DNA of 64,000 nt, from positions 68,066-132,065 of the forward strand of contig JAUSIS010000004.1 of NCBI GenBank assembly GCA_030647355.1, in the 5' to 3' direction. Within the stretch, counting starts at the first letter, position 1; each line of letters starts with the position of its first letter. The notes below the pieces were generated by a model. The model saw only the letters and a list, made by a program, of their open reading frames with translations. It did not search any database and was not told the DNA's origin. The translations under genes were made by a program, and so were the position numbers. Of the stretch, positions 3,725 to 63,793 are shown piece by piece. Source of the stretch: a bacterium. GTDB lineage: Bacteria; Patescibacteriota; UBA1384; VFKW01.

Positions 3725-4444
3725 ATGGCGATATTGGAGATAAAAAATTTAACCAAAACTTACGGCTCCGGTCATACTAAAGTTAAGGCCGTTGATAACG
3801 TGTCACTCGAAGTAAACGAAGGCGAGATTGTTTTAATTATGGGCCCGAGTGGTTCCGGCAAGACTACCCTCATCACTATGGCCGGCGCTCTGCTTAAACC
3901 AACCTCTGGCGATATATTTTTGAAAGGTCAGGATATCAGCAAGCTCTCGGAAAAACAATTGCCCAAGGTTCGTCTACAGGAGTTGGGTTTTGTTTTTCAA
4001 TCCTTTAACCTGCTTGCCTCTTTGACCGCACAGGAAAATGTAGCTATCCCGCTGATAGCGGCTGGCCATAAAAAGAGTAAAGCCTTATTAAAGGCCAAGG
4101 AAGCCTTAGAAAAATTGAGTTTGGGAGATCGTCTCAATAACCTGCCCCGGAACTTATCCGGTGGTGAAAAGCAAAGGGTGTCAGTTGCTCGTGCCTTGGT
4201 CAATGATCCCGGTATTATTCTAGCAGATGAACCAACGGCTAACCTCGATTCGAAGACCGGCCATGAAGTGATGGAATTGTTGTGTTCTGTTGGGTGCCAA
4301 GAGAAGAAAGCGGTCGTAATAGTCAGCCATGATGGACGCTTAAAAGATATCGCCAATCGAGTCATCTGGTTTGAAGACGGCAGAATAACGAAAATCGAAG
4401 ACGGAAAGCATAACCAGATGTGCAATCACATAGTACATGGATAA
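3725..4444 (+). CDS. ABC transporter ATP-binding protein (MacB/LolD-like)
   Basis: Walker A GPSGSGKTT, signature LSGGEKQRVSVARAL and Walker B ILADEPTANLD. ATG at 3725 just after the permease stop. Confidence 0.85.
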   Translation: MAILEIKNLTKTYGSGHTKVKAVDNVSLEVNEGEIVLIMGPSGSGKTTLITMAGALLKPTSGDIFLKGQDISKLSEKQLPKVRLQELGFVFQSFNLLASLTAQENVAIPLIAAGHKKSKALLKAKEALEKLSLGDRLNNLPRNLSGGEKQRVSVARALVNDPGIILADEPTANLDSKTGHEVMELLCSVGCQEKKAVVIVSHDGRLKDIANRVIWFEDGRITKIEDGKHNQMCNHIVHG

Positions 4445-8856: not shown

Positions 8857-10086
8857 ATGTATAATAATGTAATGCCGAGACCCCACAGGGGGCTAAGAAA
8901 CCGTGGGAAAACTTCTTCTCTAAGCAGCTCTCCCTTTTATTCTTCAAACGCAAATCGGGGAAGAAATAACTCAAGGCGACAAAGCGGTGAGAAAATTGAT
9001 ATCTCGAGATTTATTCAAAAAGCCTCGGATCAAACCAATGCAGTCGCAGAAGAAATCGTAAATTCTTTTGCTGATTTTGGATTTGTTTCGGAACTGGAGA
9101 GAAATTTAAAGGTTAAAAATTATTCTATTCCAACTCCAATCCAAGACCAATCAATCAATCATATTTTGGAAGGGCGGGATATAATCGCCTTAGCCAATAC
9201 CGGCACCGGTAAAACCGGCGCATTCTTACTGCCGATGATAAACAAAGCTTTCAAAGACAATGACCAAAAGGTTTTAATTATCACACCTACACGAGAATTA
9301 GCTTTGCAGATTGCAGATGAATTTCATTGCTTCTCATTTGGGATGAGGATTTTTTCCGCCTTATGCATCGGTGGTACACCGATCGGTAAGCAAATAGCAA
9401 ATTTGAGACGAAATCCGCAATTTGTAATCGGAACACCCGGAAGGTTGCAAGATTTACATAAAAGAAACTTAATTAATTACAATCAATTTCAAAATATCGT
9501 GCTGGATGAAGTAGATCGCATGTTAGATATGGGTTTTATCAGCGAAATTAGAGATATTTTGAGCCAATTTCCTAAAGTTCGACAATCGTTGTTTTTCTCA
9601 GCGACTATGCCCCCAAAAATTAGAGCTCTTGCTGAAGAATTTTTGCAATATCCCATCACGGTTTCCATCAATGCCGGGAAAACAGCCCAAAATGTTGAGC
9701 AGGATATTATAAGAGTGGGTGAGGGTGAAAAATTTGACAAGCTCCAAAATATATTGTCCCAGCCGGATTTCCAAAAAGTGCTCATCTTCAGCGAAACCAA
9801 GCACGGCGTGGAAAAATTGAAAACAAATCTGGTAAATAGCGGTTTCAGCGCTGAATCTATCCATGGTGATAAGCGCCAAGGACAAAGACAGCGCGCCTTA
9901 AATCAGTTCAAAAACAATGAAGTTACTATCCTTGTAGCAACGGACGTTGCGGCTCGCGGACTTGATATTAAAGATATTTCTCACGTAATCAATTACACAA
10001 TTCCCGAGACTTATGACGATTATATACACAGAATTGGAAGAACCGGCCGCGCTAACAAAACTGGCATAGCTCTGACCTTTGTCTAA
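8857..10086 (+). CDS. DEAD-box ATP-dependent RNA helicase (DEVD variant of motif II) with Arg/Ser-rich N-terminal extension
   Basis: ANTGTGKT, DEVD, SAT and HRIGRTGR motifs. RBS AAGGAAAG. A roughly 150-nt 5' leader follows a TTGACT promoter. Confidence 0.85.
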   Translation: MYNNVMPRPHRGLRNRGKTSSLSSSPFYSSNANRGRNNSRRQSGEKIDISRFIQKASDQTNAVAEEIVNSFADFGFVSELERNLKVKNYSIPTPIQDQSINHILEGRDIIALANTGTGKTGAFLLPMINKAFKDNDQKVLIITPTRELALQIADEFHCFSFGMRIFSALCIGGTPIGKQIANLRRNPQFVIGTPGRLQDLHKRNLINYNQFQNIVLDEVDRMLDMGFISEIRDILSQFPKVRQSLFFSATMPPKIRALAEEFLQYPITVSINAGKTAQNVEQDIIRVGEGEKFDKLQNILSQPDFQKVLIFSETKHGVEKLKTNLVNSGFSAESIHGDKRQGQRQRALNQFKNNEVTILVATDVAARGLDIKDISHVINYTIPETYDDYIHRIGRTGRANKTGIALTFV

Positions 10087-34146: not shown

Positions 34147-35094
34147 TTAAGATGACAAAGTAGTGATGGGCCTGGATTGCAGAATATAGTATTTGCCTTT
34201 TTCGAAAGCCCATTCGATGTCTTGGGGGAATTTATAATGTTCTTCAATTTTTTTAAAAATCTTAGCCAGCTCAATAATATGGTGATCAGATATTTTTTGT
34301 TTTTCTTGCTTTTCGGTTTCGACTGTTACTTCTTTGGTGCCCGACTTGCCAACTTTAACTATCATCATTTCTTGAGAAGAAACATATTTTTCGATGAAAT
34401 CTAGTTTTTCTTTGTCAATAATATAAGTGTCGGGAGTTATTTTGCCACCAACAATTGCTTCGCCTAAGCCATAGCCGGCTTCTATGACCATTTGATTTTT
34501 GTCCTCGGTGACCGGGTGGACAGTAAAGCAAATGCCGGATACTTCCGATTGAATCATTTTCTGGATGACTACTGCTACAGAAACGGCAGTGGTATTTAAG
34601 CCCTTTTCAAATCGGTAGAAGATTGCTCGAGGAGTAAATAACGAAGACCAGCAGAGTTTGACTTTTCCCAATAAATCGTCTTTAGTGGTATTTAAGTAAC
34701 TTTCTAATTCCCCTGCCCATGAGGCATCAGCGGCATCTTCGGCTGTCGCAGAGGATCGGACAGCGACATACTGGGCGTCAAGGGATTTGAAGGCTTCTTC
34801 CACCTCCCCTTGGATGTCTTTGGGGAATTCGGTATTGAGAATCATGGCCCTAATTTTCGCCGAAGCGCCATCCACAGAATTCACGTCCTTATGGTCTACT
34901 TTAGATAGAATTGCATCAATATCGGCTTTGAGCAAGCATTCTTCAAGAAATTTATCAAAACCGCTCGCCAATACTACAAAGCCGGGGGGAACTGGAATTC
35001 CCGCTTGTGTCATTTCGCCTAAACTAGCTCCCTTGCCGCCAGCAATATCCGTGTTTTCTTTGGTAAGATGGGAAAAGTGTTTGATAAATTCCAT
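34147..35094 (-). CDS. stand-alone PPDK_N/PEP-synthase-type ATP-grasp nucleotide-binding domain protein (pyruvate phosphate dikinase PEP/pyruvate-binding N-terminal domain family)
   Basis: IAGGKGASLGEM, GIPVPPGFVV, VRSSATAEDA, SWAGELESYLN, DIEWAF and YILQSRPIT are all hallmark PPDK_N motifs. Its 315 aa equals the ATP-grasp module of rifampin phosphotransferase. Confidence 0.85.
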   Translation of the reverse strand: MEFIKHFSHLTKENTDIAGGKGASLGEMTQAGIPVPPGFVVLASGFDKFLEECLLKADIDAILSKVDHKDVNSVDGASAKIRAMILNTEFPKDIQGEVEEAFKSLDAQYVAVRSSATAEDAADASWAGELESYLNTTKDDLLGKVKLCWSSLFTPRAIFYRFEKGLNTTAVSVAVVIQKMIQSEVSGICFTVHPVTEDKNQMVIEAGYGLGEAIVGGKITPDTYIIDKEKLDFIEKYVSSQEMMIVKVGKSGTKEVTVETEKQEKQKISDHHIIELAKIFKKIEEHYKFPQDIEWAFEKGKYYILQSRPITTLSS

Positions 35095-35106
35095 TGAGGC
35101 TTCTTT

Positions 35107-36399
35107 CTAAGACCTATTGATTATTTTTACTACGCCTTTATTAGCATCAACTTCTACCAGATCCCCGTCTTTAAGAACCTTGGTGGCGATTTTTGTTCCC
35201 ACAATGCAAGGCTTATGCATTTCCCTAGCTACAATTGCGGCGTGGCAGGTTATGCCTCCTTCATCGGTTACAAATGATGCCGCCCTGTTCATAGCTGAAA
35301 TAAAGGAGGGGAATGTCATTTGCGTTACTAGTATATCTCCAACCTCTACTTTATTTAGCTCCGGAACATCTCTAACTATCTTGACGACTCCCCTCTTAGT
35401 GCCAGGATATGCTATTGCTCCTCTTACTTCTTCCTTTTCAGAAACTGTTTCATCTTCAATAATGGGATCGTTTTGAAATAGCACATCGCCATCTAAATAC
35501 ACAAAAGTGGAAAATGGCTCGTACCTTTCTGTATGTCCAACAAGAAAACTCTTCGCTCGGAAATAAATCATCTCCTGTAATTCGATATTATTCCTAGTCG
35601 CCATTTCTTGGATGATGGGTCTTGCTAGGAAAAGCAGCCAATAAAAAACATCCGTTCTTTCAGTTCTAAAGAAAACTAACTCTTGAACCTCGTTGAACAA
35701 ATCTTGTAGTTCTTTCGGGATTTCTATATTGGCTCGGTCTTGTTCTGGAGCAAGTTCAGTTCTCATTTTTTTGATTTCTTCGGCGGTAAATGGGCTAGTA
35801 AACGCAAATCTTGGTTTTAACCAACCATACTGGCTAGCAATCTCTTCATCAGAAGCATTACTTCTCATTAATTCCTTAAATTTAGCATAGGCATTTTTCT
35901 TTTTAGGGAAACCAGCGTCGCCGACAAATTTATCAATATCGCCCTTTATATACTTAGGTACTTCTTGTTTAATTACTCTGTTATAATAAGATTCAACTCC
36001 ATGTGCAAGCCAAATATAAGTACAGACTGTTTTTAATATTTCATATATAGTTGCAAATTTATGATCGATTTTGTCAGATGAAATTAATAATGATTTAATT
36101 TTTTTACCGCTGACCTCTCTAAAATTCTCTAAATCATTACTTATATCAGTCATTCTGTGATTGCGTAGATATTTTTCAACTTGGGCGTCCATTTCCTCCA
36201 TTAATTCATTATTCAAATACCAACTGCCTTTTTGAGCAAATTGAGTGCGAAGTTCAACCCCATCAATTCCAATTTTCTCAAAGCTCTCCGGCCTACTAGA
36301 ATCTTCAAATAGGGAAAAAACGAAAGCGTGAAACGGCCGCTCTAGCCACCTTTCCCATTTCATACCCTGAACTTTAGTTATAATCCCTTTGGAATCCAT
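35107..36399 (-). CDS. PEP-utilizing-enzyme swivel phosphohistidine domain protein, paralog 4 (about 330-aa unique N-terminal domain plus about 95-aa C-terminal His domain)
   Basis: C-terminus GVVKIVRD...GDILVTQMTFPSFISAMNRAASFVTDEGGITCHAAIVAREMHKPCIVGT...DGDLVEVDANKGVVKI (PEP-utilizers mobile domain with catalytic His). Confidence 0.8.
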   Translation of the reverse strand: MDSKGIITKVQGMKWERWLERPFHAFVFSLFEDSSRPESFEKIGIDGVELRTQFAQKGSWYLNNELMEEMDAQVEKYLRNHRMTDISNDLENFREVSGKKIKSLLISSDKIDHKFATIYEILKTVCTYIWLAHGVESYYNRVIKQEVPKYIKGDIDKFVGDAGFPKKKNAYAKFKELMRSNASDEEIASQYGWLKPRFAFTSPFTAEEIKKMRTELAPEQDRANIEIPKELQDLFNEVQELVFFRTERTDVFYWLLFLARPIIQEMATRNNIELQEMIYFRAKSFLVGHTERYEPFSTFVYLDGDVLFQNDPIIEDETVSEKEEVRGAIAYPGTKRGVVKIVRDVPELNKVEVGDILVTQMTFPSFISAMNRAASFVTDEGGITCHAAIVAREMHKPCIVGTKIATKVLKDGDLVEVDANKGVVKIINRS

Positions 36400-36425
36400 C
36401 TGTACTCTTTAATCGCTGATTATTT

Positions 36426-37538
36426 CTATTCTTTATTTATTTCTGCTTTTAGATCTTCACTCTGTTTAATGATGTCTTTCAGAATATCTTCAGTAACAAT
36501 AATTTCACTGCCATCTTCAAATGCTAACCTTTCAGGTAAAGTCATTTTAATAATTTTCTCTTTACCATCATCAGTAATGGTAAATTTGAAACCTTCCGCT
36601 TCTTTGAAACCAGCTTTGACCTTTTCGCATAGTTCGTCGCGGGCTTCAGCGCCTTTTGTCATTCCTACAACTTTCAGCATGAACGATTCCCCCACCGAAG
36701 CGTGAGTTCCAAAAATTCTGCGGAAATTATAAGAACCATCCTTACTAATTGATGAATATTGCTCAGGATTGCTTTTAACAAACCGGTTTAGCTCGCTGCT
36801 CGTTTCAGTATAGCCAAGCAAGATATCAGCTACATTAGCAGCAAGCATAGAATAACTCATCGCGTCTTTGTCGTGCTCATCAAGAGCCATTTGATCACTT
36901 TCATTAACAAACCACGGCATTAAATTGCCAGCGGCAAAGACCTCATTTTCTTTCTTAGCAACCGGACCGGCATCGGCTTGAAAATCCAAACGATCATCAC
37001 TTTCAATCCAATCAATTCCCTCGAAATCGTAACGTATAGTAAATTTCTCCTCAAGTCCTTCAAGAGAAAGTCCATCTATTTTCCCTGCCAAAGTTTTTTC
37101 AGCTTCATTTAATTCTTCCTTAGCCAATAATTTAGTAAGCAGCGCATCAATCTCTTCCGTGCTGGCGCCTAATTCCTGCATTATTTCTTGTGAAAGGGCG
37201 GTAATCCCAGCGGTTTCCCGAGCCCTAACACGCGGAGAGCCTTTTGCCATTACCTCAGTCATCTCTCCCATTTTAATGGCTTTATCAAGAGCCTGAGTTT
37301 TACCCAGAGTATTTAGATGGACTTTGTAATCCTCCGGACCGCGGACTTGCGATTCTTTTTTACCATGGCGTGTCAAATCTATCTCCACTACCGTTGTTAT
37401 ACCTTCAGATTCTCCTGCTTCAGTGTTTGTTTCATTTTCATGTAGCTCTGGCCAGCCAGTGGATCGGCCGGCTTCTGTATCTTCTTCGGTCTCATGTTCT
37501 TCACTTTGTTCAAATCTAGGGAATATTTCCTCAGGCAT
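36426..37538 (-). CDS. acidic protein with histidine-phosphatase (PGM branch)-like RHG motif
   Basis: IDLTRHGKKESQ near the N-terminus. Downstream SPRVRARET and FGTHASVGE (second His). GGAGG RBS before the ATG at 37538; the track used an upstream TTG. Confidence 0.5.
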   Translation of the reverse strand: MPEEIFPRFEQSEEHETEEDTEAGRSTGWPELHENETNTEAGESEGITTVVEIDLTRHGKKESQVRGPEDYKVHLNTLGKTQALDKAIKMGEMTEVMAKGSPRVRARETAGITALSQEIMQELGASTEEIDALLTKLLAKEELNEAEKTLAGKIDGLSLEGLEEKFTIRYDFEGIDWIESDDRLDFQADAGPVAKKENEVFAAGNLMPWFVNESDQMALDEHDKDAMSYSMLAANVADILLGYTETSSELNRFVKSNPEQYSSISKDGSYNFRRIFGTHASVGESFMLKVVGMTKGAEARDELCEKVKAGFKEAEGFKFTITDDGKEKIIKMTLPERLAFEDGSEIIVTEDILKDIIKQSEDLKAEINKE

Positions 37539-37555
37539 CATTACCTCCAAAATAA

Positions 37556-38605
37556 TTATTTAACTATTTTTACTATACCATCATTAGCATTAACTTCCAC
37601 CGTATCACCGTCTTTTAATACTTGAGTCGCAATTTGGGTACCGACAATACAGGGTTTTTTCATTTCGCGGGCAGTTATTGAAGCATGTGACAATAATCCG
37701 CCGGAATCAGTAATAAATGCGGCGGATTTGCTCATGAGTGGTAGGAATTCCGGTCGCGTCATACCGGTAACTAAAATATCGCCGGTTTGAAAATCTCTAA
37801 TTTCACCGGGATCATTCACAATTCTAACCCGGCCTTTTGCAAAACCCTTATAAGCGATTATTCCTTTAATGATATCCTCGCTTTCCGGTTTAGTTATTTG
37901 GTCAAGCATTTTTTGGGCTTTTTCTTTGGTGAAAATTTCACATTCACCATTTTGATACCATAGCAAAGTTAGCGAAACTCTTTCTTCGAGAATTTGTTTT
38001 TCCGGCAGGTGATTGATTTGCAAATAATTTTCCAGTTCAGAATAAGTCAGGCAATTAATAATCTTATTTGAGTAATCCTTTTCTTTGGCAATAACATATA
38101 AAAATTTCTGGACCAATTGCTCAAATTCCATATAGACGCTCTCCGTGTATAAACGAGCCCTCTCAAAGTCGTCTAATAACTTTTCTAATAACCCTGCTGG
38201 TAAATAATCTATTGAGCGTTTAATGGCAAAATTCACAGCCACATGATCAAAAAATGCTCCTTTCAATTCAATAAAGTCATTATAGTCAATGTTCTCTTGA
38301 GGAGCTAATTTTATCATCAAAGCATTTATTCGATCGGTTTCGGAAATCAATTGATCAGACCATTTTGTAGCAACCAGATTGTCATCAATAATCTGCCTAG
38401 CTAAGTAATGTCCATAATCATTGAGGTCTTTTTCGAGAAAGAAATTCGTGCTAACACCATCCTCGTATGTTAGGATACTGATATTTATTTTTTTTCCTAG
38501 TTTTTGTTCAAACACTTGAGAATAAAGTTTGCCGTCGAGAGAATCGAAGACTAAGCCGACATTAACAACCCAATTCTTGACCCAAATTCCTTTTGGTATG
38601 TCCAT
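37556..38605 (-). CDS. PEP-utilizing-enzyme swivel phosphohistidine domain protein, paralog 3 (about 250-aa unique N-terminal domain)
   Basis: C-terminus GRVRIVND...GDILVTGMTRPEFLPLMSKSAAFITDSGGLLSHASITAREMKKPCIVGT...DGDTVEVNANDGIVKI. GGAG RBS before the ATG at 38605 (MDIPKG...). Confidence 0.8.
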   Translation of the reverse strand: MDIPKGIWVKNWVVNVGLVFDSLDGKLYSQVFEQKLGKKINISILTYEDGVSTNFFLEKDLNDYGHYLARQIIDDNLVATKWSDQLISETDRINALMIKLAPQENIDYNDFIELKGAFFDHVAVNFAIKRSIDYLPAGLLEKLLDDFERARLYTESVYMEFEQLVQKFLYVIAKEKDYSNKIINCLTYSELENYLQINHLPEKQILEERVSLTLLWYQNGECEIFTKEKAQKMLDQITKPESEDIIKGIIAYKGFAKGRVRIVNDPGEIRDFQTGDILVTGMTRPEFLPLMSKSAAFITDSGGLLSHASITAREMKKPCIVGTQIATQVLKDGDTVEVNANDGIVKIVK

Positions 38606-38623
38606 TTTTTCTCCAGCCAACAT

Positions 38624-40084
38624 TTATTTGATTATTTTTATAATACCATTATCGGCATCAACTTCTACTAAATCGCCGTCATGTAAAACTTGGGTAGCTA
38701 TTTTAGTTCCAATAATGCAGGGTTTCTTCATTTCCCGTGAAACGATAGCGGCGTGACAGAGAATTCCTCCTTCGTCCGTGATAAAAGCGGCGGCTTTCTC
38801 CAGGGCAGGAATAAAATTGGGGAAAGTCATAACCACCACAAGAATATCCCCATGTTTGACCTTTATTAAATCATCTCCATTATGAACTATTACTACCCTG
38901 CCCTTAGTCTGGCCTTGATACGCGACATTACCCTTAATCTCATTAATTTTGTCGGTATTTTCTTTTGAAAAAATCTCTTTGATTTTTCTTTGCCAAGTGG
39001 GGCCAGACATAATAATATATTTGTCTTCAAGTAGAACGTTCGCGAAAAAAGTCTTTCTATTAGTGAATTCCTCTTGTGTAATGGGTAAACGGCCGGTTTT
39101 AGCAGCTTCGGTAACTTCCGAATAAACCAGGTAGACGATATCATCCTCATGGATACCAATGCGTTTAGCGACCTCTTGTAATAAATGACGGGCCTGATGT
39201 TCGGAACGATAGATGATATCTGTGCGCCAAGTACGCAGATACGCATATTCCTGGGCAAGGTGAATCAAATTAAATAAAGTCGTTCTGGGTTTGAGGGACA
39301 ATTCTTTTAGTAGGGCTTGGGTTTCCACGGCCTTTTCTTTCTTTAGCTTGCCAAGGCGATTGAGTTCGTCGGCAGGATTCTTGCCTTGACGAAATAATTC
39401 TTCGATTCGAGCTTCGATATCTTGTTTCTTCCATTCCCTTTGCCACCAATAGCCACGAGTTCCAACCCAGGCAAATTGCTTAAGATGTTCTTCTAATAAG
39501 GAGGGGTACTTTTTCAAGTTATAAGAAGCAGCTAATTTGTAAAGCGATCTCTCTTCGTGTAAGTGATTATTTTCCTTTGTTGGGTAAGTTAGTACTGCAA
39601 GCCAAGATTGTTTTTGGGCATCGGCTGCAGAAGGTAAGAGATTAAGGATTATTTGGGATAGAGGTTTGGCTATGAGGGGCATTGGCGATAAAAAGCAGTA
39701 AGCACAAAGACACTCTTTGAAATAATTTTCCAGTATCTTAACTAATTTAGTTTGTTTCATTTTGGAAAAGTTTATTCTTTCTAAACTTGATCCGGTTTTG
39801 TCCAAAGTTTTGACATGGTGTAGTAGCTGGTTACGAAATTGGATAAGTAAGTCGACACCACGTTTTTCAAAAAGATTCCTTAGCGCTTCCATGTCTTCGG
39901 CTGAATGGTAAAAATTCCCATCACCAGTGCGGAGCGCATAATGAAAACGATAGTTTATGCCGCTAGCTTTGGGGAAGTAAGGATGAGAGCCATCGCTAAT
40001 CGACCAGTGGAGGGGAGCTTCCTTGCGATTAACAAGATACTGCCAGTTAATTTTTTTGATATCTGAAATAATTTGGTCATCCAT
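38624..40084 (-). CDS. PEP-utilizing-enzyme swivel phosphohistidine domain protein, paralog 2 (about 390-aa unique N-terminal domain)
   Basis: C-terminus GRVVIVHN...GDILVVVMTFPNFIPALEKAAAFITDEGGILCHAAIVSREMKKPCIIGT...DGDLVEVDADNGIIKI. AAGGAGG RBS. The ATG overlaps the paralog-1 stop by 8 nt, consistent with translational coupling. Confidence 0.8.
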   Translation of the reverse strand: MDDQIISDIKKINWQYLVNRKEAPLHWSISDGSHPYFPKASGINYRFHYALRTGDGNFYHSAEDMEALRNLFEKRGVDLLIQFRNQLLHHVKTLDKTGSSLERINFSKMKQTKLVKILENYFKECLCAYCFLSPMPLIAKPLSQIILNLLPSAADAQKQSWLAVLTYPTKENNHLHEERSLYKLAASYNLKKYPSLLEEHLKQFAWVGTRGYWWQREWKKQDIEARIEELFRQGKNPADELNRLGKLKKEKAVETQALLKELSLKPRTTLFNLIHLAQEYAYLRTWRTDIIYRSEHQARHLLQEVAKRIGIHEDDIVYLVYSEVTEAAKTGRLPITQEEFTNRKTFFANVLLEDKYIIMSGPTWQRKIKEIFSKENTDKINEIKGNVAYQGQTKGRVVIVHNGDDLIKVKHGDILVVVMTFPNFIPALEKAAAFITDEGGILCHAAIVSREMKKPCIIGTKIATQVLHDGDLVEVDADNGIIKIIK

Positions 40085-41453
40085 CAATCCTCCTTACAAT
40101 ACCCTCATTCGCATCAACTTCCACTAAATCACCATCCTGTAAAATCTGGGTTGCGTATTTTGTTCCAACGATACAGGGGATTTTTAATTCTCTTGCAACT
40201 ATTGCCGCGTGGGAGGTAATACCTCCGACATCCGTTACAAAAGCGGCAGCTCTTTTCATCGCCGGAAGTAACTGTGGGCTAGTAGCACTAGAAACAAGTA
40301 TATCCCCTTCGTTTACTTTATCATTATGCTGAGGGCCAAAGACTAATTTAACTTTTCCTCTGACTATGCCCGGATGAGCCACTTGTCCTTTTAACGCTTC
40401 GTCTTTTAAGATTTCTTCTTTGGCAAAATGGGTATTAACGAATTCCAGGGCAACCTTACCTATCCTTACTTCATAAAGTTCACTATCTGTGGGAATATAC
40501 ACTGCACGCTCATATCGTTCCTCAATATTTTCTGGAAAAGTGATTTTACCGTTTATGATTTCAACAAGTTCATTTGAATAGAGTGCTTCAATGTACTTAG
40601 AATCTACTCCCCATTGTTTACCCAAGCTGTCTACTAATTTATTCATAACTACATAGAGAAACTGGCGGACATCGGCTCTTAACGCCTTCGTAAATATTAT
40701 ATCTTGGGAAATTACAAAGATAGTCTTCTCTTGATCAGATAGTGATAACTCCTTTTCTAACTCAACGGAAAAAATTTTATGTTCAGGTGGATTACTGTTT
40801 TTAATCTTTGCTGAATCATCGTTATTTAATCCTCTGCCAATATAACCTTGGCCCAACCAGAAGTATTCTCTTAACAGTTGATCATCGTCTTTATGTCCTT
40901 CTCTAATATCATCATAGGCTTGTTGAGTCAGGCTTTTTTCATAAGGCGTTCCCAAAACACTTGTGTAAATATGGACAGGATAACTTAAATTTTTCCTTTT
41001 CATTACTATTTCTAGCAACCGATCTGTAATTCCACCATAAAAGTCAGCAAAAGCGATGACTGCTCCATGTAAACCGCATTCTGCTTGAAGAAAATGGATT
41101 TTTTCTAAAGCTTGGGATATTTCATTGTTTTTCATAGACCCAGTAATCGGAAAAAGTTCGCGCGCGTAGGATTGCATATCATCGGTGATGGAAATGGTTT
41201 TTTCTTTTAACATTTTTAGTAGCGAGGGGTTGTTTATGATTGAATCGGCGCATCGATAAATGAAAGGGGCGGCACTTTCTTGTTCTATGCAATAATTAAT
41301 AGTCCTGCCGTTAATCACCTCTAAGTAAGAATCGGGTGCGAGAATGCCTATTTGGTCTTGCATTCTTTTATCGTTAATGCCAAACCACATCATTTCTAAC
41401 GATAAAAGAGAAGTATCGATATCTTGATTACCGCGAATATATTTTTTAGTCAT
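40077..41453 (-). CDS. PEP-utilizing-enzyme swivel phosphohistidine domain protein, paralog 1 (about 360-aa unique N-terminal domain)
   Basis: C-terminus GKVKLVFGP...GDILVSSATSPQLLPAMKRAAAFVTDVGGITSHAAIVARELKIPCIVGT...DGDLVEVDANEGIVRRI. GGAGG RBS 5 nt upstream. Confidence 0.8.
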   Translation of the reverse strand: MTKKYIRGNQDIDTSLLSLEMMWFGINDKRMQDQIGILAPDSYLEVINGRTINYCIEQESAAPFIYRCADSIINNPSLLKMLKEKTISITDDMQSYARELFPITGSMKNNEISQALEKIHFLQAECGLHGAVIAFADFYGGITDRLLEIVMKRKNLSYPVHIYTSVLGTPYEKSLTQQAYDDIREGHKDDDQLLREYFWLGQGYIGRGLNNDDSAKIKNSNPPEHKIFSVELEKELSLSDQEKTIFVISQDIIFTKALRADVRQFLYVVMNKLVDSLGKQWGVDSKYIEALYSNELVEIINGKITFPENIEERYERAVYIPTDSELYEVRIGKVALEFVNTHFAKEEILKDEALKGQVAHPGIVRGKVKLVFGPQHNDKVNEGDILVSSATSPQLLPAMKRAAAFVTDVGGITSHAAIVARELKIPCIVGTKYATQILQDGDLVEVDANEGIVRRIDG

Positions 41454-58797: not shown

Positions 58798-59061
58798 ATG
58801 ATTATAAAGAAGAAAATTTGGACGGAATATTTCGAGAAGGTAGCAAGCGGAGAGAAGAAATTTGAGGTTCGCTTGGCTGATTTTGAAGTGAATGAAGGCG
58901 ACACTTTGGTTTTGGAGGAATGGGATCATAAAAAGAATAGGTATACCGGACGGCGGGTTGAAACAAAAGTTAGTTTTGTGGTAAAAACCAAGGAATTAAC
59001 ATTTTGGAATCAGGACGAAATTGATAAAAAGGGATATCAGATTATACAGATAGAGGTTTAA
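58798..59061 (+). CDS. small ASCH/PUA-like (DUF3850-like) protein
   Basis: 87 aa with an EVRLADFEVNEGDTLVLEE pattern similar to the ASCH-domain family. Low certainty. Confidence 0.45.
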   Translation: MIIKKKIWTEYFEKVASGEKKFEVRLADFEVNEGDTLVLEEWDHKKNRYTGRRVETKVSFVVKTKELTFWNQDEIDKKGYQIIQIEV

Positions 59062-59067
59062 TATTTG

Positions 59068-59157
59068 GGTGGGATCGCATAGCGGTCGAGTGCGCGGGCT
59101 TGGAAAGCTCGTAGGTCTGTGAGGGCCTCCAGGGTTCGAATCCCTGTCCCACCGCCA
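59068..59157 (+). tRNA. tRNA-Ser (anticodon GGA), CCA encoded
   Basis: Acceptor GGUGGGA/UCCCACC. Anticodon stem CGGGC/GCUCG with loop UUGGAAA. Long variable arm. T arm AGGG-UUCGAAU-CCCU. Terminal GCCA. Confidence 0.85.
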
Positions 59158-59176
59158 TTTAAAATAAAGGAGCTCT

Positions 59177-59503
59177 ATGGCCCAGTTTTTAACACCTACT
59201 CGAAGCAAAATTATTCTAGGTTTAGTCTTATTTTTAGTACTGCCTATTACTACAATTCCTATGTTTAAAGATCCATTCCAATGTGGTTTATATTCACCTA
59301 GCAAAGGATGTATGTATTATCATTGGTTACCTTTTGGAGGGATATATTTCATAACCGCTCTAATTTATGGTGGCAACCAGGCATTTATGATTACAAATAA
59401 TTACATCTATAAAGGTGGAGCTTTAATAATAGTATCTTATTTATTATCTTGTGCGGCCGTTTATATTTTTAAAAAATTATATCCTAAAAAAACCAGTAAT
59501 TAG
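59177..59503 (+). CDS. hypothetical membrane protein (3 TM)
   Basis: AGGAG RBS before the ATG. Hydrophobic. Confidence 0.5.
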   Translation: MAQFLTPTRSKIILGLVLFLVLPITTIPMFKDPFQCGLYSPSKGCMYYHWLPFGGIYFITALIYGGNQAFMITNNYIYKGGALIIVSYLLSCAAVYIFKKLYPKKTSN

Positions 59504-59508
59504 AAATA

Positions 59509-59536
59509 AAGGTTCTAGACCGACATGTCCCCGCCA
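59509..59536 (+). repeat. 27-nt intergenic repeat copy A (AAGGTTCTAGACCGACATGTCCCCGCCA)
   Basis: One of four near-identical copies (59509, 61714, 62949, 63652). All are on the plus strand, immediately 3' of a stop codon. Confidence 0.8.
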
Positions 59537-59608
59537 TGTGGTATTTGGTTCATGCTCTGCAATAATAGGAAACAAATTAGGTAAAACAGTATAATTGGGA
59601 GGTGAATT

Positions 59609-59680
59609 ATGGAGAATAAAATCAAACCAACCGGTTGTTGTGAGCCGTTTAACCCAGAACCATGGCAAGAAAAATTATAA
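59609..59680 (+). CDS. 23-aa peptide MENKIKPTGCCEPFNPEPWQEKL
   Basis: GGGAGG RBS 6 nt upstream. In frame with the downstream gene and separated from it only by a single TAA. Confidence 0.3.
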   Translation: MENKIKPTGCCEPFNPEPWQEKL

Positions 59681-59821
59681 ACTGAACAGGTCAGTATATA
59701 TTATGAAGAAGAAATAAGAATCATCAGGGAGGAAATTATTAAGGATAAAAAAATTATTAAAATTATAACCATAATTTTACTTATATTATCTGGAATAATA
59801 TTTATACTACCAGTTAATATA

Positions 59822-60211
59822 TTGCCGCGTTTTATATCAGAATTGGGGAGAATAATTTCTGATTATTTGAGTGGCTTTTCGCCATACGCATTAATTGCAA
59901 CAATATTAGTATTTAATTTCATTTTTTATTACCAAAAAGAGACGACGGAAAATAATCAAAGGTTGAAATCTATCTTAATCAACGTATTAAATAGTAATTT
60001 TATATGGCTTAGATTTGCCTTTAGCCTGGTCCTTACCAGCATTATCGGTTTAATATTAATGAACTATCAGCTCAACTATTATTATGGCATAATATTCTTC
60101 TACCTACTTCTTTCATTGGTAATGAAAACGCCGAATAACAAACAGAAAAATAAAATTGCGGAGAAAATTCTAGAAAATTCTGAGGTATACCGTCATCCGG
60201 AAAACAATTAA
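59822..60211 (+). CDS. hypothetical membrane protein (start uncertain; the reading frame is open upstream to 59681)
   Basis: TTG start in the track. An AGGGAGG RBS at 59726 precedes a hydrophobic in-frame extension with no ATG. Confidence 0.5.
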   Translation: MPRFISELGRIISDYLSGFSPYALIATILVFNFIFYYQKETTENNQRLKSILINVLNSNFIWLRFAFSLVLTSIIGLILMNYQLNYYYGIIFFYLLLSLVMKTPNNKQKNKIAEKILENSEVYRHPENN

Positions 60212-60233
60212 TATATGAAAGACCGGATATCTA

Positions 60234-60719
60234 ATGAATGAATTAATTTACTTGACTATATTTTCAATTCTAATTCTCGCTGGGGTGATAAGTTTTGTCT
60301 TATTAGTTTTCCCTAGTCATGTTTTTATTTTGATCATTACGCTTGTTTTTGGCTTTGTTGACCATTGGGTACATTTGAAAATATGGGAGTTGTTGGTGCT
60401 GGCTGGGTTGGCCGGAATTATGATTTTCGTTGATTATTTTTCGGGACTACTGGGGGCTAAATTTTTTGGCGCTAGTAGTAAATCACTGCTTTGGGGAGTC
60501 GTGGGATTATTTTTGGGAATATTTTTTTGGCCACCGATAGGAAGTTTAATTGGACTTTTTATCGGGGTATTTATCGCCGAGACGTATTATTTTAAAAAAA
60601 TCAAAAGTGCTGTTCGTGCTGCTTCCGGTTCACTCATCGGTGTTGTGCTCGGACTAATTATAAACATTATCTTGGGACTTGGATTTTTAGGACTCTTTAT
60701 ATGGTTCGGACTGAAGTGA
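60234..60719 (+). CDS. hypothetical polytopic membrane protein
   Basis: 4-5 TM helices. Gly-rich GxxxG packing motifs. Confidence 0.55.
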   Translation: MNELIYLTIFSILILAGVISFVLLVFPSHVFILIITLVFGFVDHWVHLKIWELLVLAGLAGIMIFVDYFSGLLGAKFFGASSKSLLWGVVGLFLGIFFWPPIGSLIGLFIGVFIAETYYFKKIKSAVRAASGSLIGVVLGLIINIILGLGFLGLFIWFGLK

Positions 60720-60802
60720 AAGTCATGGGAATAAAATAAGCCCCCGACGCGAAGTCTGAGGGCTTTTAAGTCAATTGGTCAGGGGTCAGGCTGGTCATAT
60801 TT

Positions 60803-61507
60803 TCAACTCTGGTGTATTCCGGCTTGTCTCAAGATATCCAGACCATGAATTGCATCTTTGTCACCGGGATTGAGCTCCAGAGTCTTCTCAAAACATATCA
60901 GAGCTTTACCCGGATCAAGTAAATCAAGACAGCATTGTCCTTTATTGAACCAGGCAATAGCATAGTCTGGTTTTTCCTGAATCGATCTTTCATATTCCAG
61001 AAGGGCGTCTTGCAGTCGGCCCAACTTAGAATACACAAACCCACGATTGTTGTACGCTTGGGCCAGATTCGGATTGAGCTGAACAGCCTTGTTGTAGAAC
61101 GCGAGCGCTCCTTCAAGTGCTTCCTTACTATCTGGGGCTGATCTGGTTTGTACTTGGACGCCGAATTCGTTGCATTCGACGGCATCCAAATATTCATCCA
61201 ATTCCGGATATCTCGATCCGGATTCGGATTCAACGATGATCGCGAGTCGCTTGGTCATAGTATCGTCGGGGCTAAGTTTCAAAACCTCAACGTAAGCCCT
61301 AAGTGACTCTTCCAATTTACCGAGAGAGTATAGGCAGCTGGCCTTAGAATACCAAGCATTGGTATTTTCAGGATCCAGCTCGATTGCTTTGTTCAGCAAT
61401 TCAAGTGCTTCGTCGAACTTGTTTTGCCCGCAAAGGACGCAAGCTTGCTCGTTAAGTGTAAAGGCTTCTTGTTGTGGATTCATCATTTGTTTCCCTCCGT
61501 TGCTCAC
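60803..61507 (-). CDS. tetratricopeptide (TPR) repeat protein
   Basis: 6 or more 34-aa repeats with the W/LG/Y...A...F...A...P pattern. Confidence 0.8.
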   Translation of the reverse strand: MSNGGKQMMNPQQEAFTLNEQACVLCGQNKFDEALELLNKAIELDPENTNAWYSKASCLYSLGKLEESLRAYVEVLKLSPDDTMTKRLAIIVESESGSRYPELDEYLDAVECNEFGVQVQTRSAPDSKEALEGALAFYNKAVQLNPNLAQAYNNRGFVYSKLGRLQDALLEYERSIQEKPDYAIAWFNKGQCCLDLLDPGKALICFEKTLELNPGDKDAIHGLDILRQAGIHQS

Positions 61508-61654
61508 CTACAAGCACTATCGTAAATGATGGCTTTGGTGGCTGTATTCAAGAGCATTACCCTTGAAGCAACCACTAAAGCGTTTGTTAAATTACGGCCT
61601 AATTATAGTTCAAAACAGGTTAAAAGTCAATAAAAATGCGGCACTATCCCATAC

Positions 61655-61930
61655 ATGCTTTGTACTGTCCCATTTTGTCCCACTATAGGGTATAATGTTC
61701 TTAGAAATGGGACAAAGGTTCTAGACCGACATGTCCCGCCAATTGGGGATAAGATAAAATTGCTTAGAAATAAGTAGGGAATAACGCAGGACGAATTGGC
61801 GAGAAAATCCGATCTTTCCTATACAACGCTGACCAAAATTGAAACAAATGTCATCACTAAGCCCTTTATCCAAACTGTTATGAAGATAGCAACAGGATTA
61901 GAAATTGGTATTGATGATTTAATGAGGTAA
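61655..61930 (+). pseudogene. XRE-family HTH transcriptional regulator interrupted by in-frame TAG (61775-61777) and with a probable G-run frameshift at its start
   Basis: ...PIGDKIKLLRNK*GITQDELARKSDLSYTTLTKIE... is a canonical HTH_XRE helix1-3 pattern split by TAG. With one extra G in GGGG (61745-48), the ATG at 61731 would give MSRQLGDKIKLLRNK. Confidence 0.5.
61714..61741 (+). repeat. 27-nt repeat copy B (AAGGTTCTAGACCGACATGTCCCGCCA)
   Basis: See copy A. Lies inside the 5' region of the XRE pseudogene. Confidence 0.8.
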
Positions 61931-61932
61931 GT

Positions 61933-62937
61933 ATGGAATTGGATAACAATCAAGAAATAAATGATCCTTCACGTAAAAAATCTTTCCTAAAAAAACATTG
62001 GTGGATAGGGCTTACTTTGATGGTTGTTACGATCTTTGCAGGGCTTGTGATAACGAAAATGGTCGCAAAAAAACAGAACCAAAAATCGATACCAGACATT
62101 GCGTACTCGCCAGCGTCTATTCCGACCATTCCCTCAACTAGCGCATCTGCGCTTACCTCGCCACCAACCAGTATGGATGGGATTAATACTCATACGGAAC
62201 TGTATAGTGGTACTGGTGCTGATCAAAATCTAATTACACTTGGCCCCAAAGTTGATGATTATTCAGTATCGACACCCTATACAGGCAAGCAGGGATTTGA
62301 ATTTGAACTTGCCAGTAAAACGCCATTACTTGCACCCATTGATATGACACTGATAGGTTTTCAAAATAATAGTGTCAAAGAAGGAACTGGGGCAGACGGG
62401 ACAAAGTACACACCTTTTAATGATATAGTATTATATTTTGAGTCTACCAGTCCTGATTGGCCAGGCGTGGTCATAAAGTTGTATCATTTATATAGCTCAC
62501 CTCTACTTACTGGGCACTATCAAAATTCAGATTGCGGTGATGTTCAAAGGGGCACTGATGATGCCCAAGTCGAAGGACACCTTTTCTTTGCATATGATGA
62601 CTACACGGTTTCGTCACAAAATAACGCAGAAGCTTGCCAAGCTCTCATCGGACGCAAGGTAAAGCGAGGGGAGCTGATTGGATATGCAGGCAATGTGGGC
62701 GAGCACTCCTTTGCTTCATTCTGTTTCAAGGTGCCGGATAAATCAATAAGTCCGATCGTTAAAAAAGGGAACCGAAATCTGCATTGGGTTCAGCCTGCCT
62801 CATTTTTCTATTGGAAAAGCTATAGCCCCGATGCGGATTTCCCCAGTGGAGTTCTCGCCTACCCCTTTGAAATTGACGGATATCATCTTCCTGCCGAACA
62901 ACGCGATGCAAATTTCAAGTACACTTCGAAGAAATAA
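61933..62937 (+). CDS. membrane-anchored protein with degenerate M23/LytM domain (catalytic His residues lost)
   Basis: RGELIGYAGNVGEHSFASFCFKV aligns to GDIIGYEGSTGNSSGAHVHFKV of the M23 gene at 1091, but HxH becomes SFASF. N-terminal TM and Ser/Thr/Pro linker. Confidence 0.6.
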   Translation: MELDNNQEINDPSRKKSFLKKHWWIGLTLMVVTIFAGLVITKMVAKKQNQKSIPDIAYSPASIPTIPSTSASALTSPPTSMDGINTHTELYSGTGADQNLITLGPKVDDYSVSTPYTGKQGFEFELASKTPLLAPIDMTLIGFQNNSVKEGTGADGTKYTPFNDIVLYFESTSPDWPGVVIKLYHLYSSPLLTGHYQNSDCGDVQRGTDDAQVEGHLFFAYDDYTVSSQNNAEACQALIGRKVKRGELIGYAGNVGEHSFASFCFKVPDKSISPIVKKGNRNLHWVQPASFFYWKSYSPDADFPSGVLAYPFEIDGYHLPAEQRDANFKYTSKK

Positions 62938-62948
62938 TATTGACATAA

Positions 62949-62975
62949 AAGGTTCCAGACCCAGCTGTCCCGCCA
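62949..62975 (+). repeat. 27-nt repeat copy C (AAGGTTCCAGACCCAGCTGTCCCGCCA; ATG becomes CTG)
   Basis: See copy A. Confidence 0.75.
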
Positions 62976-63060
62976 TTCGACTCGCTTTGCTCGCTCATGG
63001 TCTTCGACCAGAGAGCAAACGAGGCGAATGCCCTGAGTTTATCGAAGGGCTGAAAATGAT

Positions 63061-63312
63061 ATGAATTATTTTACATACATTATTCTTTGCGACAATAATA
63101 AATATTATATCGGTCATTCATCTGATGTTGATCGGAGATTTGAACGACATTTCCACAAAAACGGTGCAAAATTTACTGCCCAAAATGTACCGGTGAAGAT
63201 TTTATGGAAACAAGAATTTAATACCGAAATCGAAGCGATTAGACGAGAAAAACAAATTAAGGGTTGGAATAGAGCTAAGAAAGAGAATTTAATTAAAGGA
63301 GTTTGGCAATGA
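63061..63312 (+). CDS. GIY-YIG nuclease superfamily protein (stand-alone, YhbQ/UPF0213-like)
   Basis: YFTYIILCDNNKYYIGHSSDVDRRFERH contains GIY...YIG and the conserved Arg/His. Confidence 0.75.
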   Translation: MNYFTYIILCDNNKYYIGHSSDVDRRFERHFHKNGAKFTAQNVPVKILWKQEFNTEIEAIRREKQIKGWNRAKKENLIKGVWQ

Positions 63313-63653
63313 AGCAATTTGTAAAAATTTATGTTTTTGTCCCAAAATCTCATATTGATAAAATCCGTTCGTCCTTGGGAGAAGCCGGTATTGGCAAAAT
63401 GGGAAACTATGATTATTGTTCTTTTGTTTCGGAAGGAAAAGGATATTTTCGACCCCTAAACGGAGCAAATCCGGCTATTGGAACTGTTGGAAAAGTTGAA
63501 GAAGTAGAAGAAGTCAAGTTAGAATTCGTTTGTTTGGAGTCGGAAATTGAGAAAGTGATGGATGTTATCAAAAAACATCATCCATATGAAGAAGTTGCCT
63601 TGGATGTGATTCCATTATTGGATTTGCCAAGTATCAATAACCCAAAACAATAA
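63303..63653 (+). CDS. conserved hypothetical small protein (beta-alpha-beta, possibly PII-like/NIF3-insert-like fold)
   Basis: 116 aa. Overlaps the GIY-YIG stop by 10 nt. The fold assignment is by pattern recollection only. Confidence 0.45.
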   Translation: MAMKQFVKIYVFVPKSHIDKIRSSLGEAGIGKMGNYDYCSFVSEGKGYFRPLNGANPAIGTVGKVEEVEEVKLEFVCLESEIEKVMDVIKKHHPYEEVALDVIPLLDLPSINNPKQ

Positions 63654-63678
63654 GTTCTAGACCCACATGTCCCGCCAG
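63652..63678 (+). repeat. 27-nt repeat copy D (AAGTTCTAGACCCACATGTCCCGCCA)
   Basis: See copy A. Its ATG opens a 21-aa ORF MSRQLGNVFVGSPSARARQPK. Confidence 0.75.
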
Positions 63679-63793
63679 TTAGGAAATGTCTTTGTTGGCT
63701 CGCCCTCTGCGAGGGCTCGCCAGCCCAAATGAGAAGAAAATTGGAATTTTTTGTCCACTCGTGACAAATATAATTTAGGAGTATAATAAAATT

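Follow-up and report, generated by a model that had tools for sequence, protein, structure and literature searches.

Near the end of a 64-kb stretch of a Patescibacteria genome (contig JAUSIS010000004.1, positions 68,066 to 132,065; the window hereafter), a serine tRNA gene, tRNA-Ser(GGA), is followed by small accessory modules separated by four direct copies of a 28-nt repeat. These repeats are probably att-type junctions of modules that have been stacked at the 3′ end of the tRNA gene, the last ~27 nt of which they imitate. The features that carry this reading are directly observed: the colinearity of the repeat with a tRNA, a fixed breakpoint at its 3′ edge, the exchange of half-sites across that breakpoint, one clean presence or absence of a module between two loci, and the orientation and position of the repeats relative to tRNA-Ser. 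In the arrangement we propose, modules of 0.1–2.2 kb would have been inserted successively at the 3′ end of tRNA-Ser(GGA), each starting at the base after ...CCGCCA and ending in its own copy of the repeat. This terminal copy, which would imitate the 3′ half of the T arm, the acceptor strand, G73 and CCA, would restore the ...CCGCCA target for the next event. The joints may be the work of a trans-acting site-specific recombinase that exchanges strands within or beside CCGCCA, and modules without a recombinase would be decayed or cis-mobilisable remnants.

The anchor of the array, tRNA-Ser(GGA) with an encoded CCA (59068–59157, forward strand, ending …CCCTGTCCCACCGCCA), was called by ARAGORN and scored 50.3 bits with the Rfam tRNA model; it has the same orientation as the repeats, and the array begins just 3′ of it. 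A search of the window with the 27-mer of the original prediction, allowing up to three mismatches, returned four matches, all on the forward strand, at 59509, 61715, 62949 and 63651. No copy was present in the first 59 kb, as had been claimed, and half-motif searches with either half gave no additional copy in the window. None of 100 shuffled controls contained a match. These copy counts refer to the 64-kb window. Alignment and repeat finding showed the full unit to be 28 nt, AAAGGTTCYAGACCSASMTGTCCCGCCA, one A longer at the 5′ side than the 27-mer, with similarity stopping at the final A. All four copies are confined to 4.2 kb and share one orientation. Copy A (59508–59536; GTCCCCGCCA / AAAGGTTCTAGACCGACATGTCCCCGCCA) has one extra C and lies 5 nt 3′ of a stop codon. 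Copy B (61714–61741) is the consensus copy. Copy C (62948–62975) is a CCAGACCCAGCTG variant 10 nt 3′ of a stop codon, and its 28-mer is identical in three other loci (L028, L029 and L030 in our numbering). Copy D (63650–63677; ATAAGTTCTAGACCCACATGTCCCGCCA) overlaps the TAA of a 116-aa open reading frame (ORF), 0 nt from the stop. The earlier observation that each copy starts a few nucleotides after the preceding stop codon therefore holds for A, C and D but not for B, which follows a promoter-like module. The small palindromes described within the repeat, TCTAGA and GACATGTC, are present.

From GGTTC to GCCA the repeat measures 25 nt, exactly as in every tRNA-Ser gene fetched. It is colinear with tRNA positions ~50–76, comprising the T-loop invariants, a 7-nt acceptor strand, G73 and CCA. 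G53, T54, T55, C56, A58, C61, C62, G73 and CCA are retained; the T-arm bases are followed by 3 + 7 variable or stem positions before G73 and CCA, and the stem positions differ from those of tRNA-Ser. Judged from its sequence, the repeat resembles the 3′ end of a tRNA without being a copy of the resident tRNA-Ser. It is not a tRNA gene or pseudogene, which would show a cloverleaf or homology beyond the 3′ end: only positions ~50–76 are present, to which copy B adds a 6-nt 5′ acceptor strand, and ARAGORN called no tRNA or tmRNA at the copies. Rfam searches at gathering and permissive thresholds found no family at the copies (window 58.5–64 kb, L002, L010 and L016).

The likeness to tRNA raises the question of whether the element acts as RNA, either as a transcribed tRNA-like minihelix that is recognised by RNase P, RNase Z, the CCA-adding enzyme and possibly SerRS and punctuates polycistronic transcripts, or as a tiny RNA gene whose 3′ end is the integration target. 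Copy B together with the upstream GGGAC does form a minihelix-like hairpin (−13 kcal/mol, z −2.97). Both copy B and the L026-type copy form a 6-bp stem that surrounds a small T-arm-like hairpin and precedes GCCA (−13 to −14 kcal/mol), and the B, L026 and L002 versions with GGGAC all fold into such acceptor-plus-T-arm-like hairpins ending in GCCA (z −2.3 to −3.0). As in copy B, GGGAC(A) lies upstream of the copies in L026, L027, L032, L033, L037 and L038. A −10-like box occurs 4–25 nt upstream of many copies. Promoter-bearing copies tend to stand on the left and bare copies on the right (L032, L035, L051, and B then C then D in the window), as expected if the bare copies were displaced 3′ ends of a tiny RNA gene. 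A leader that begins TTCGAC and follows some copies has covarying stems, and its CAUGG can pair with GCCAU. However, about half of all copies, among them A, C and D, lack the 5′ strand and a fold (z −0.3 to −0.8 for these three, with A at −0.67). Since B is the only window copy that folds, the conserved feature is the sequence and not the structure. Paired positions hardly vary and so offer no covariation support, position 57 is a pyrimidine, the T stem has only 2–4 bp, and neither Rfam nor ARAGORN makes a call. An RNA element also leaves unexplained the half-site shuffling described below and the inverted copies in locus L040. On this evidence we regard the RNA reading as unlikely.

Scans with exact patterns, covering one genome per species as well as JGI metagenomes, located the 25–28-mer in ~16 independent Patescibacteria loci with a GC content of 33–44%. 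These comprise Patescibacteria and Saccharibacteria metagenome-assembled genomes and low-GC metagenome contigs (L002, L010, L016/36, L026–L033, L035, L037 and L038); loci reached through proteins added L050, which has a degenerate copy, and L051–53. The same scans gave single chance matches in high-GC genomes, in about the expected number. In all repeat loci similarity ends directly after GCCA, and two or three direct copies are present in L031, L032, L033, L035, L037 and L051. Wherever a tRNA gene is in reach it is tRNA-Ser, upstream and on the same strand (window, L002, L010, L029/30, L037 and L050). The site was also sought on phages and plasmids, where it could serve as attP: pattern scans of IMG/VR gave chance matches only, one of them inside a giant ORF, and INPHARED phages and PLSDB plasmids yielded nothing meaningful. 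The full-text literature on Patescibacteria contained no description of the repeat that we could find.

Comparison of these loci reveals what happens at the 3′ edge of the repeat. L032 and L035 have in common a promoter module, a first repeat, a 99-nt gene-less unit ending in a second repeat and, further on, a NUDIX gene. Between the second repeat and the NUDIX leader, L032 contains an extra 468 nt with both breakpoints at GCCA; this unit is a 140-aa ORF whose TGA abuts a third repeat. In L037, a synteny relative with the order RpoD–DnaG–tRNA-Ser, one 116-nt unit starts at two places, immediately behind the CCGCCA of tRNA-Ser and, 1.3 kb further downstream, immediately behind that of a repeat. 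Likewise, L002 has one 25-nt flank at two places 1.8 kb apart, behind tRNA-Ser(CGA) and behind a variant of the repeat. Copy D in the window is followed by 78 nt (segment F, 63678–63755, forward strand; GTTAGGAAATGTCTTTGTTGGCTCGCCCTCTGCGAGGGCTCGCC…AAATTGGAATTTTTTGTC) with homology to the DNA directly 3′ of tRNA-Ser(GGA) in L040, where segment F follows an inverted pseudo-tRNA end as well (…GTTCGAATTTTTTCGAACGCACACCGCCA / …AGTTCGAATTTTTTCGAACGCACACCGCCA). This pseudo-site (…GTTCGAA…CGAACGCACACCGCCA) precedes other sequences too in L040 and L046. The TTCGAC leader lies directly after the CCA of a real tRNA-Ser in L010 (twice), L054/55 and L056 (twice), and directly after repeats in the window (copy C), L032, L035, L038 and L051 (three times). 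Three kinds of left half, namely genuine tRNA-Ser ends, the repeat and the pseudo-site, are thus found joined to right halves (segment F, the leader or other sequence) in many combinations at a single fixed breakpoint. Such half exchange is the footprint of site-specific recombination and is unexpected for a regulatory motif or a dispersed repeat. Together with the module present in L032 and absent from L035, it supports the suggestion in the original prediction that the repeat is a recombination site marking cassette boundaries.

The same observations make it very improbable that the repeat is a generic dispersed intergenic element, comparable to repetitive extragenic palindromic (REP) sequences or miniature inverted-repeat transposable elements, or that the array is an assembly artefact. 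The repeat is admittedly short, intergenic, GC-rich in an AT-rich genome and present in many genomes. REP sequences and bacterial interspersed mosaic elements, however, occur as many dispersed palindromic copies in alternating orientation, whereas here four clustered, direct, non-palindromic copies stand in 4.2 kb with none in the other 59 kb, and a fixed breakpoint with exchange of partners is not a property of such elements. The possibility of an artefact draws on a second assembly of the organism: an independent Logan contig of identical sequence (L039/L048) ends at window position 58919, ~150 nt before tRNA-Ser and beside the array. The Logan assembly derives from SRR13727527; the contig was reached with the RpoD and DnaG proteins, whereas exact matches to the 334-aa ORF and the GIY-YIG protein of the array, sought for DNA past the end of the window, gave nothing. 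This contig end suggests a variable or hard-to-assemble locus. Against an artefact, 28 nt would be shorter than the final k-mer that the "k141" names of some assemblies imply, and the architecture is seen repeatedly in assemblies made independently (JGI, ENA, NCBI and Logan).

A trans-acting site-specific recombinase is the likely agent of the stacking, and a large serine recombinase is the leading candidate. In L040, a 523-aa protein with Resolvase, Recombinase and Zn_ribbon domains adjoins tRNA-Ser(GGA) on the opposite strand. Its gene is bracketed by inverted repeats of 87 nt (4125–4211 / 5644–5730, 100% identical) that start at CCGCCA, and a neighbouring XRE–NUDIX pair is bracketed by inverted repeats of 114 nt (5725–5838 / 7102–7215, 99%) that end in the pseudo-site. 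Each arm starts or ends at a CCGCCA junction, and from their arrangement the two pairs look like invertible segments or nested insertions. In L049, a locus identified through a DnaG relative, a 452-aa large serine recombinase is encoded ~400 nt beyond tRNA-Ser(GGA) with a type I restriction-modification island. These two recombinase loci carry the related pseudo-site or no repeat. The enzyme that made the joints in the window may have been of this large serine type. A tyrosine enzyme is also conceivable: the repeat joined to an L040-type segment F would read GACATGTCCC-GCCAATT-GGGAAATGTC, a 10-7-10 near-palindrome, which may suit such an enzyme. The repeat followed by short TTCGAC leaders has outer arms GGTTCCAGACC / GGTCTCCGACC at ±15–25. 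Among the other right halves no dyad comparable to those at the F or TTCGAC-leader junctions was found, and dyad symmetry is to be taken as a lead only. Beside the pseudo-site in the AT-rich genomes of L040 (5780–5830 and 7100–7160) and L046 (1600–1737) there is also a GC-rich repeat family (…GGGCGGGCGGAAGGGGGG…GGGGGGAATTCCGCCCGCC…).

Several points weigh against stacking by a recombinase at the tRNA gene. The repeat and the 3′ end of the window tRNA-Ser agree at just 14 of 25 positions (GGTTC, A58, C61–62 and CCGCCA), so the classical expectation of a direct repeat of the target gene fails and the common block is only CCGCCA. Except for the TTCGAC and F starts, which recur, the sequence right of the junction shows no conservation, and a full two-armed core site is not evident. 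No recombinase was found in the window by a tyrosine-recombinase regular expression or by Pfam on 20 ORFs (not every small ORF), and none lies beside any fetched locus that bears the repeat, L040 having the related pseudo-site instead. The events at the joints may have been insertions or deletions between repeats. Retrieval by exact pattern biases the loci toward conserved copies, and ~16 independent loci are a small sample.

Going further, we tentatively suggest that Patescibacteria may carry an integron-like cassette platform anchored at tRNA-Ser, although this fuller picture is on present evidence rather doubtful. Its ~28-bp pseudo-tRNA-3′-end site would serve both as target and as terminal site of modules down to 99 nt, which would be moved by a recombinase encoded elsewhere, possibly one of the large serine type that recognises the site by its tRNA-like shape. 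A promoter facing outward would drive expression of newly arrived modules, and the full form of the site would be a promoter-driven 33-nt acceptor/T-arm minihelix ending in GCCA.

The genes within the modules offer a different potential agent. Module 4 encodes an 83-aa GIY-YIG nuclease-domain protein (63061–63312, forward strand; Pfam PF01541, 3.3e-19), preceded by the structured TTCGAC leader with which the module starts (62976–63050, forward strand; TTCGAC…GCTCATGG…CGAATGCCCTGAG…TCGAAGGGC). In a homing scenario, this small nuclease would cut the ...CCGCCA of tRNA-Ser or its mimic, and the leader, the GIY-YIG gene, a passenger gene and a terminal repeat would be copied into the break. The 83-aa gene indeed stands directly behind CCGCCA and the leader in the window, L037, L051, L054/55 and L056/57, the homologues in L054/55 and L056/57 lying directly behind tRNA-Ser(GGA) and the leader. 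A second GIY-YIG type occurs just upstream of tRNA-Ser(GGA) in L049 and L054, the passenger gene varies by locus (a 116-aa ORF, a 144-aa ORF or NUDIX), and the 99-nt gene-less units, consisting of the leader and an AGTTCC subtype of the repeat, resemble miniature derivatives. Nevertheless, the protein is a catalytic domain alone, without a DNA-binding domain for a site of ~28 bp. In L056 the succession of tRNA, leader and GIY-YIG gene has no repeat within 5 kb and looks like a resident neighbourhood, not an insert. Modules 1–3 of the window, the L032 cassette and the 116-nt unit of L037 have neither leader nor GIY-YIG gene, and homing requires homology on both flanks, whereas the right flanks differ. 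GIY-YIG homing is accordingly an improbable account of the array.

As to the GIY-YIG genes and the leader themselves, the second type is a small protein of 86–88 aa encoded directly upstream of tRNA-Ser(GGA) at L049 9527–9793 (tRNA 9317–9401) and L054 943–1203 (tRNA 1189–1278), and in some genomes tRNA-Ser(GGA) is flanked by two GIY-YIG genes. The TTCGAC element is ~75–105 nt long and is usually found upstream of the 83-aa gene. Outside the window it lies at L010 3800–3902 and 4590–4682 (reverse strand), L051 4055–5075, L054 1275–1382, and L056 1726–1830 and 4900–5000. Compensatory changes occur in its long first stem and its second hairpin, base pairing is possible between its CAUGG and the GCCAU before it, and it has no Rfam match.

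The original prediction had looked to the XRE-type regulator gene behind copy B, and took the repeat for the conserved 5′ end of such a gene, or for a recombination or operator site. In the corresponding explanation, the repeat would be an XRE operator with a translation-initiation region, and the other copies remnants of repeated XRE insertions. Comparison with the protein family speaks against this. The family is a very conserved 71-aa protein that starts MKSQNNNETIGDKIK, with MKSQNNNET as its true N-terminus. In the window, the sequence after GCCA starts ATTGGGGATAAG (GCCA|ATTGGGGAT, encoding IGD in frame), and its uncorrected translation reads IGDKIKLLRNK*GITQDELA…. The window XRE is a 5′-truncated pseudogene with an HTH_3 domain (61742–61930, forward strand): it begins at the codon for family residue I10, lacks the first ~9 codons, is cut exactly at the 3′ edge of the repeat, and carries a CAG-to-TAG change that places an in-frame stop at 61775–61777. 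Its frame is not that of the ATG inside copy B and needs no frameshift, so that the repair of a G-run by which the two had been joined is wrong. The short ORFs that the internal ATG was said to open do exist; however, these MSRQ... frames are not genes. In many copies from other loci the NTG is CTG or GTG, and the ORFs opened there are unrelated.

The intact XRE loci (L040–L045) have no repeat upstream, and most copies elsewhere precede unrelated sequence, which together with the different N-terminus of the family disposes of the repeat as a conserved XRE 5′ end. The operator idea fares slightly better, as the −10 box of copy B is surrounded by TGTCCC half-sites, which recur inside the repeat, and XRE-like remnants follow the repeat or pseudo-site in the window (copy B), L037 and L046. 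It cannot account for A, C and D, which are without upstream half-sites, and we consider the XRE explanation highly improbable. How the fragment came to lie behind copy B may be indicated by its junction, which reads GCCAATTGGGGAT; the sequences to compare are GCCAATTGGGAAAT at the start of segment F in L040 and ACAATTGGGGAT in the intact XRE gene, and the fragment may have been joined through the short similarity among these sequences. The XRE family is ~80–85% identical across Roizmanbacteria, Berkelbacteria and Parcubacteria, which is unusually conserved for a small regulator, and in L040 a member sits within the recombinase-associated segment.

The complete layout of the array is tRNA-Ser(GGA), module 1 and copy A, module 2 and copy B, module 3 and copy C, module 4 and copy D, and segment F. 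Module 1 (59158–59507, forward strand) encodes a 108-aa predicted membrane protein (59177–59503) that has no Pfam family. A matching order of tRNA-Ser, small membrane ORF and degenerate repeat is found in L050, whose DnaG is 60% identical. Module 2 (59537–61663) contains small ORFs, a 129-aa ORF, a DUF456 protein (60234–60719, forward strand) and a TPR protein (60803–61507, reverse strand), the latter two identified with Pfam. To it also belongs the promoter-like stretch before copy B (61664–61713, forward strand), which has TATAAT at 61691–61696, direct TGTCCCA half-sites at 61666–61672 and 61676–61682, and an inverted GGGACA at 61709–61714; homologous modules with TGTCTCAT or TGTGCCAT half-sites are located upstream of the repeat in L002, L026–28, L031, L032, L038 and L051. 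Module 3 consists of the XRE fragment and a 334-aa ORF (61933–62937, forward strand) with an N-terminal transmembrane segment and no Pfam family. Module 4 closes with the 116-aa ORF (63303–63653, forward strand), which has a weak CutA1/P-II-like match.

The window as a whole has a GC content of ~40% and encodes a bacterial sigma-70 factor and a bacterial DnaG; relatives of its DnaG, XRE and GIY-YIG proteins carry names such as Berkelbacteria, Roizmanbacteria and Parcubacteria. The window DnaG is a protein of 593 aa with no intein or LAGLIDADG domain, and several of the Patescibacteria homologues P0124, P0208, P0215, P0218, P0223 and P0227 are ~960–990 aa long with intein or LAGLIDADG Pfam domains. 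There are six credible tRNA genes in the window, of which only tRNA-Ser(GGA) and tRNA-Leu(TAG) encode the 3′ CCA. ARAGORN also reported an 89-nt tRNA-Pro at 9303–9391; this was not called by the Rfam tRNA model, lies inside a DEAD-box helicase ORF (8857–10086) and is probably a false positive. Finally, six adjacent ORFs on the reverse strand (34147–41453) include four of 355–487 aa that end in a PEP-utilising-enzyme mobile domain, with their N-terminal parts unassigned, and one with only a weak histidine-phosphatase match, in a Pfam scan of the ORFs that follow the first (34147–35094).

The Patescibacteria, also known as the candidate phyla radiation, are organisms with tiny genomes in which gene gain and loss are poorly understood. 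A searchable junction of 25–28 bp would serve, across thousands of uncultured genomes, to locate accessory-gene hot spots. The tRNA-Ser end, the repeat, the pseudo-site and the F and TTCGAC right halves would provide defined substrates for candidate recombinases. Should the enzyme prove to be of the large serine type and its site compact and tRNA-like, it could be a new source of integrases for genome engineering. The annotation of the window is also corrected, with XRE as a truncated pseudogene and the short MSRQ... ORFs removed.

Several known systems resemble the array in part. It shares with integrons short modules that mostly face the same way and carry one or a few ORFs or, in some cases, no gene, with the site right after a stop codon, and a promoter to the left of some arrays (the class with TTGCCA-17-TACAAT). 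No IntI-type tyrosine-recombinase signature was detected with a regular expression in the window, L002, L010, L016 or L026–L039, nor with Pfam in the array-adjacent ORFs. Whereas attC is an imperfect palindrome of 57–141 nt that is conserved in structure, the site described here has 28 nt, is conserved in sequence, and cannot fold in three of four copies. It has no GTTRRRY core, and GTTCTAG does not fit one. The earlier judgement that the array is neither CRISPR nor attC stands. In Acinetobacter, 28-bp XerC/D sites known as pdif bound small accessory modules; they have an 11-6-11 dyad and alternate in orientation. The small accessory modules in varied combinations between 28-bp sites are similar, but the present repeat lacks this dyad and its copies stand in one orientation: divided as AAAGGTTCTAG / ACCGAC / ATGTCCCGCCA, it shows no arm symmetry, and no inverted repeat was reported at the copies. 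Dif-like, attC-like, hammerhead-like and T-box-like readings were dropped for want of arm symmetry, a fold or an Rfam match.

Accretion of elements at one site is known from ICESt1 and ICESt3 of Streptococcus thermophilus, integrative and conjugative elements (ICEs), where successive integration into attL or attR gives tandem elements and decayed members keep their att sites. The concept of att-separated tandem elements is the same, as in ICEs and the derived cis-mobilisable elements, but those systems have tyrosine integrases, att repeats identical to the target gene end, and elements from kilobases to tens of kilobases in size. Staphylococcal cassette chromosome (SCC) and pseudo-SCC islands at the 3′ end of rlmH (orfX) form cassette arrays, many without recombinase genes, with direct repeats that contain the integration-site sequence; SCC uses a large serine recombinase, each insertion regenerates the target, and cassettes measure 3–60 kb. 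The array described here likewise consists of cassettes, many without a recombinase, marked by direct repeats. Unlike here, the SCC target is the end of a protein-coding gene and its cassettes are those of 3–60 kb. The CcrAB recombinases are discussed alongside the Dehalococcoides islands considered next (PMC3146451).

The closest likeness in architecture is to the ssrA islands of Dehalococcoides (McMurdie et al., 2011; PMC3146451). These are tandem islands downstream of the tmRNA gene, bounded by a same-strand 20-bp repeat of the tmRNA 3′ end, with a conserved element-derived motif just upstream of the repeat that does not match the target gene. Some units have no integrase and are read as cis-mobilisable or fixed; where present, a CcrB-like large serine recombinase lies next to attL on the reverse strand (PMC3146451). 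Tandem units behind a tRNA-like gene, short same-strand boundary repeats and integrase-less units are shared with the window, and the recombinases of L040 and L049 occupy the position of the CcrB-like integrase. In Dehalococcoides, however, the repeat truly duplicates 20 bp of the ssrA 3′ end and the crossover falls in the T loop, whereas the 25–28 nt described here share with the resident tRNA-Ser only the T-loop invariants and CCGCCA. The units are also far smaller (0.1–2.2 kb), no integration module is present in the window, the hosts are Patescibacteria and the target is tRNA-Ser. Two features expected of tandem elements targeted to a tRNA gene are nonetheless found, namely an array at the tRNA-Ser 3′ end with all repeats on the same strand, and presence or absence of units with exchange of flanks at a fixed position. 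Tandem accretion at the ends of tRNA, tmRNA or rlmH genes is a known kind of arrangement; a pseudo-tRNA site that does not come from the resident gene, modules of cassette size, and wide occurrence in Patescibacteria appear to be previously undescribed.

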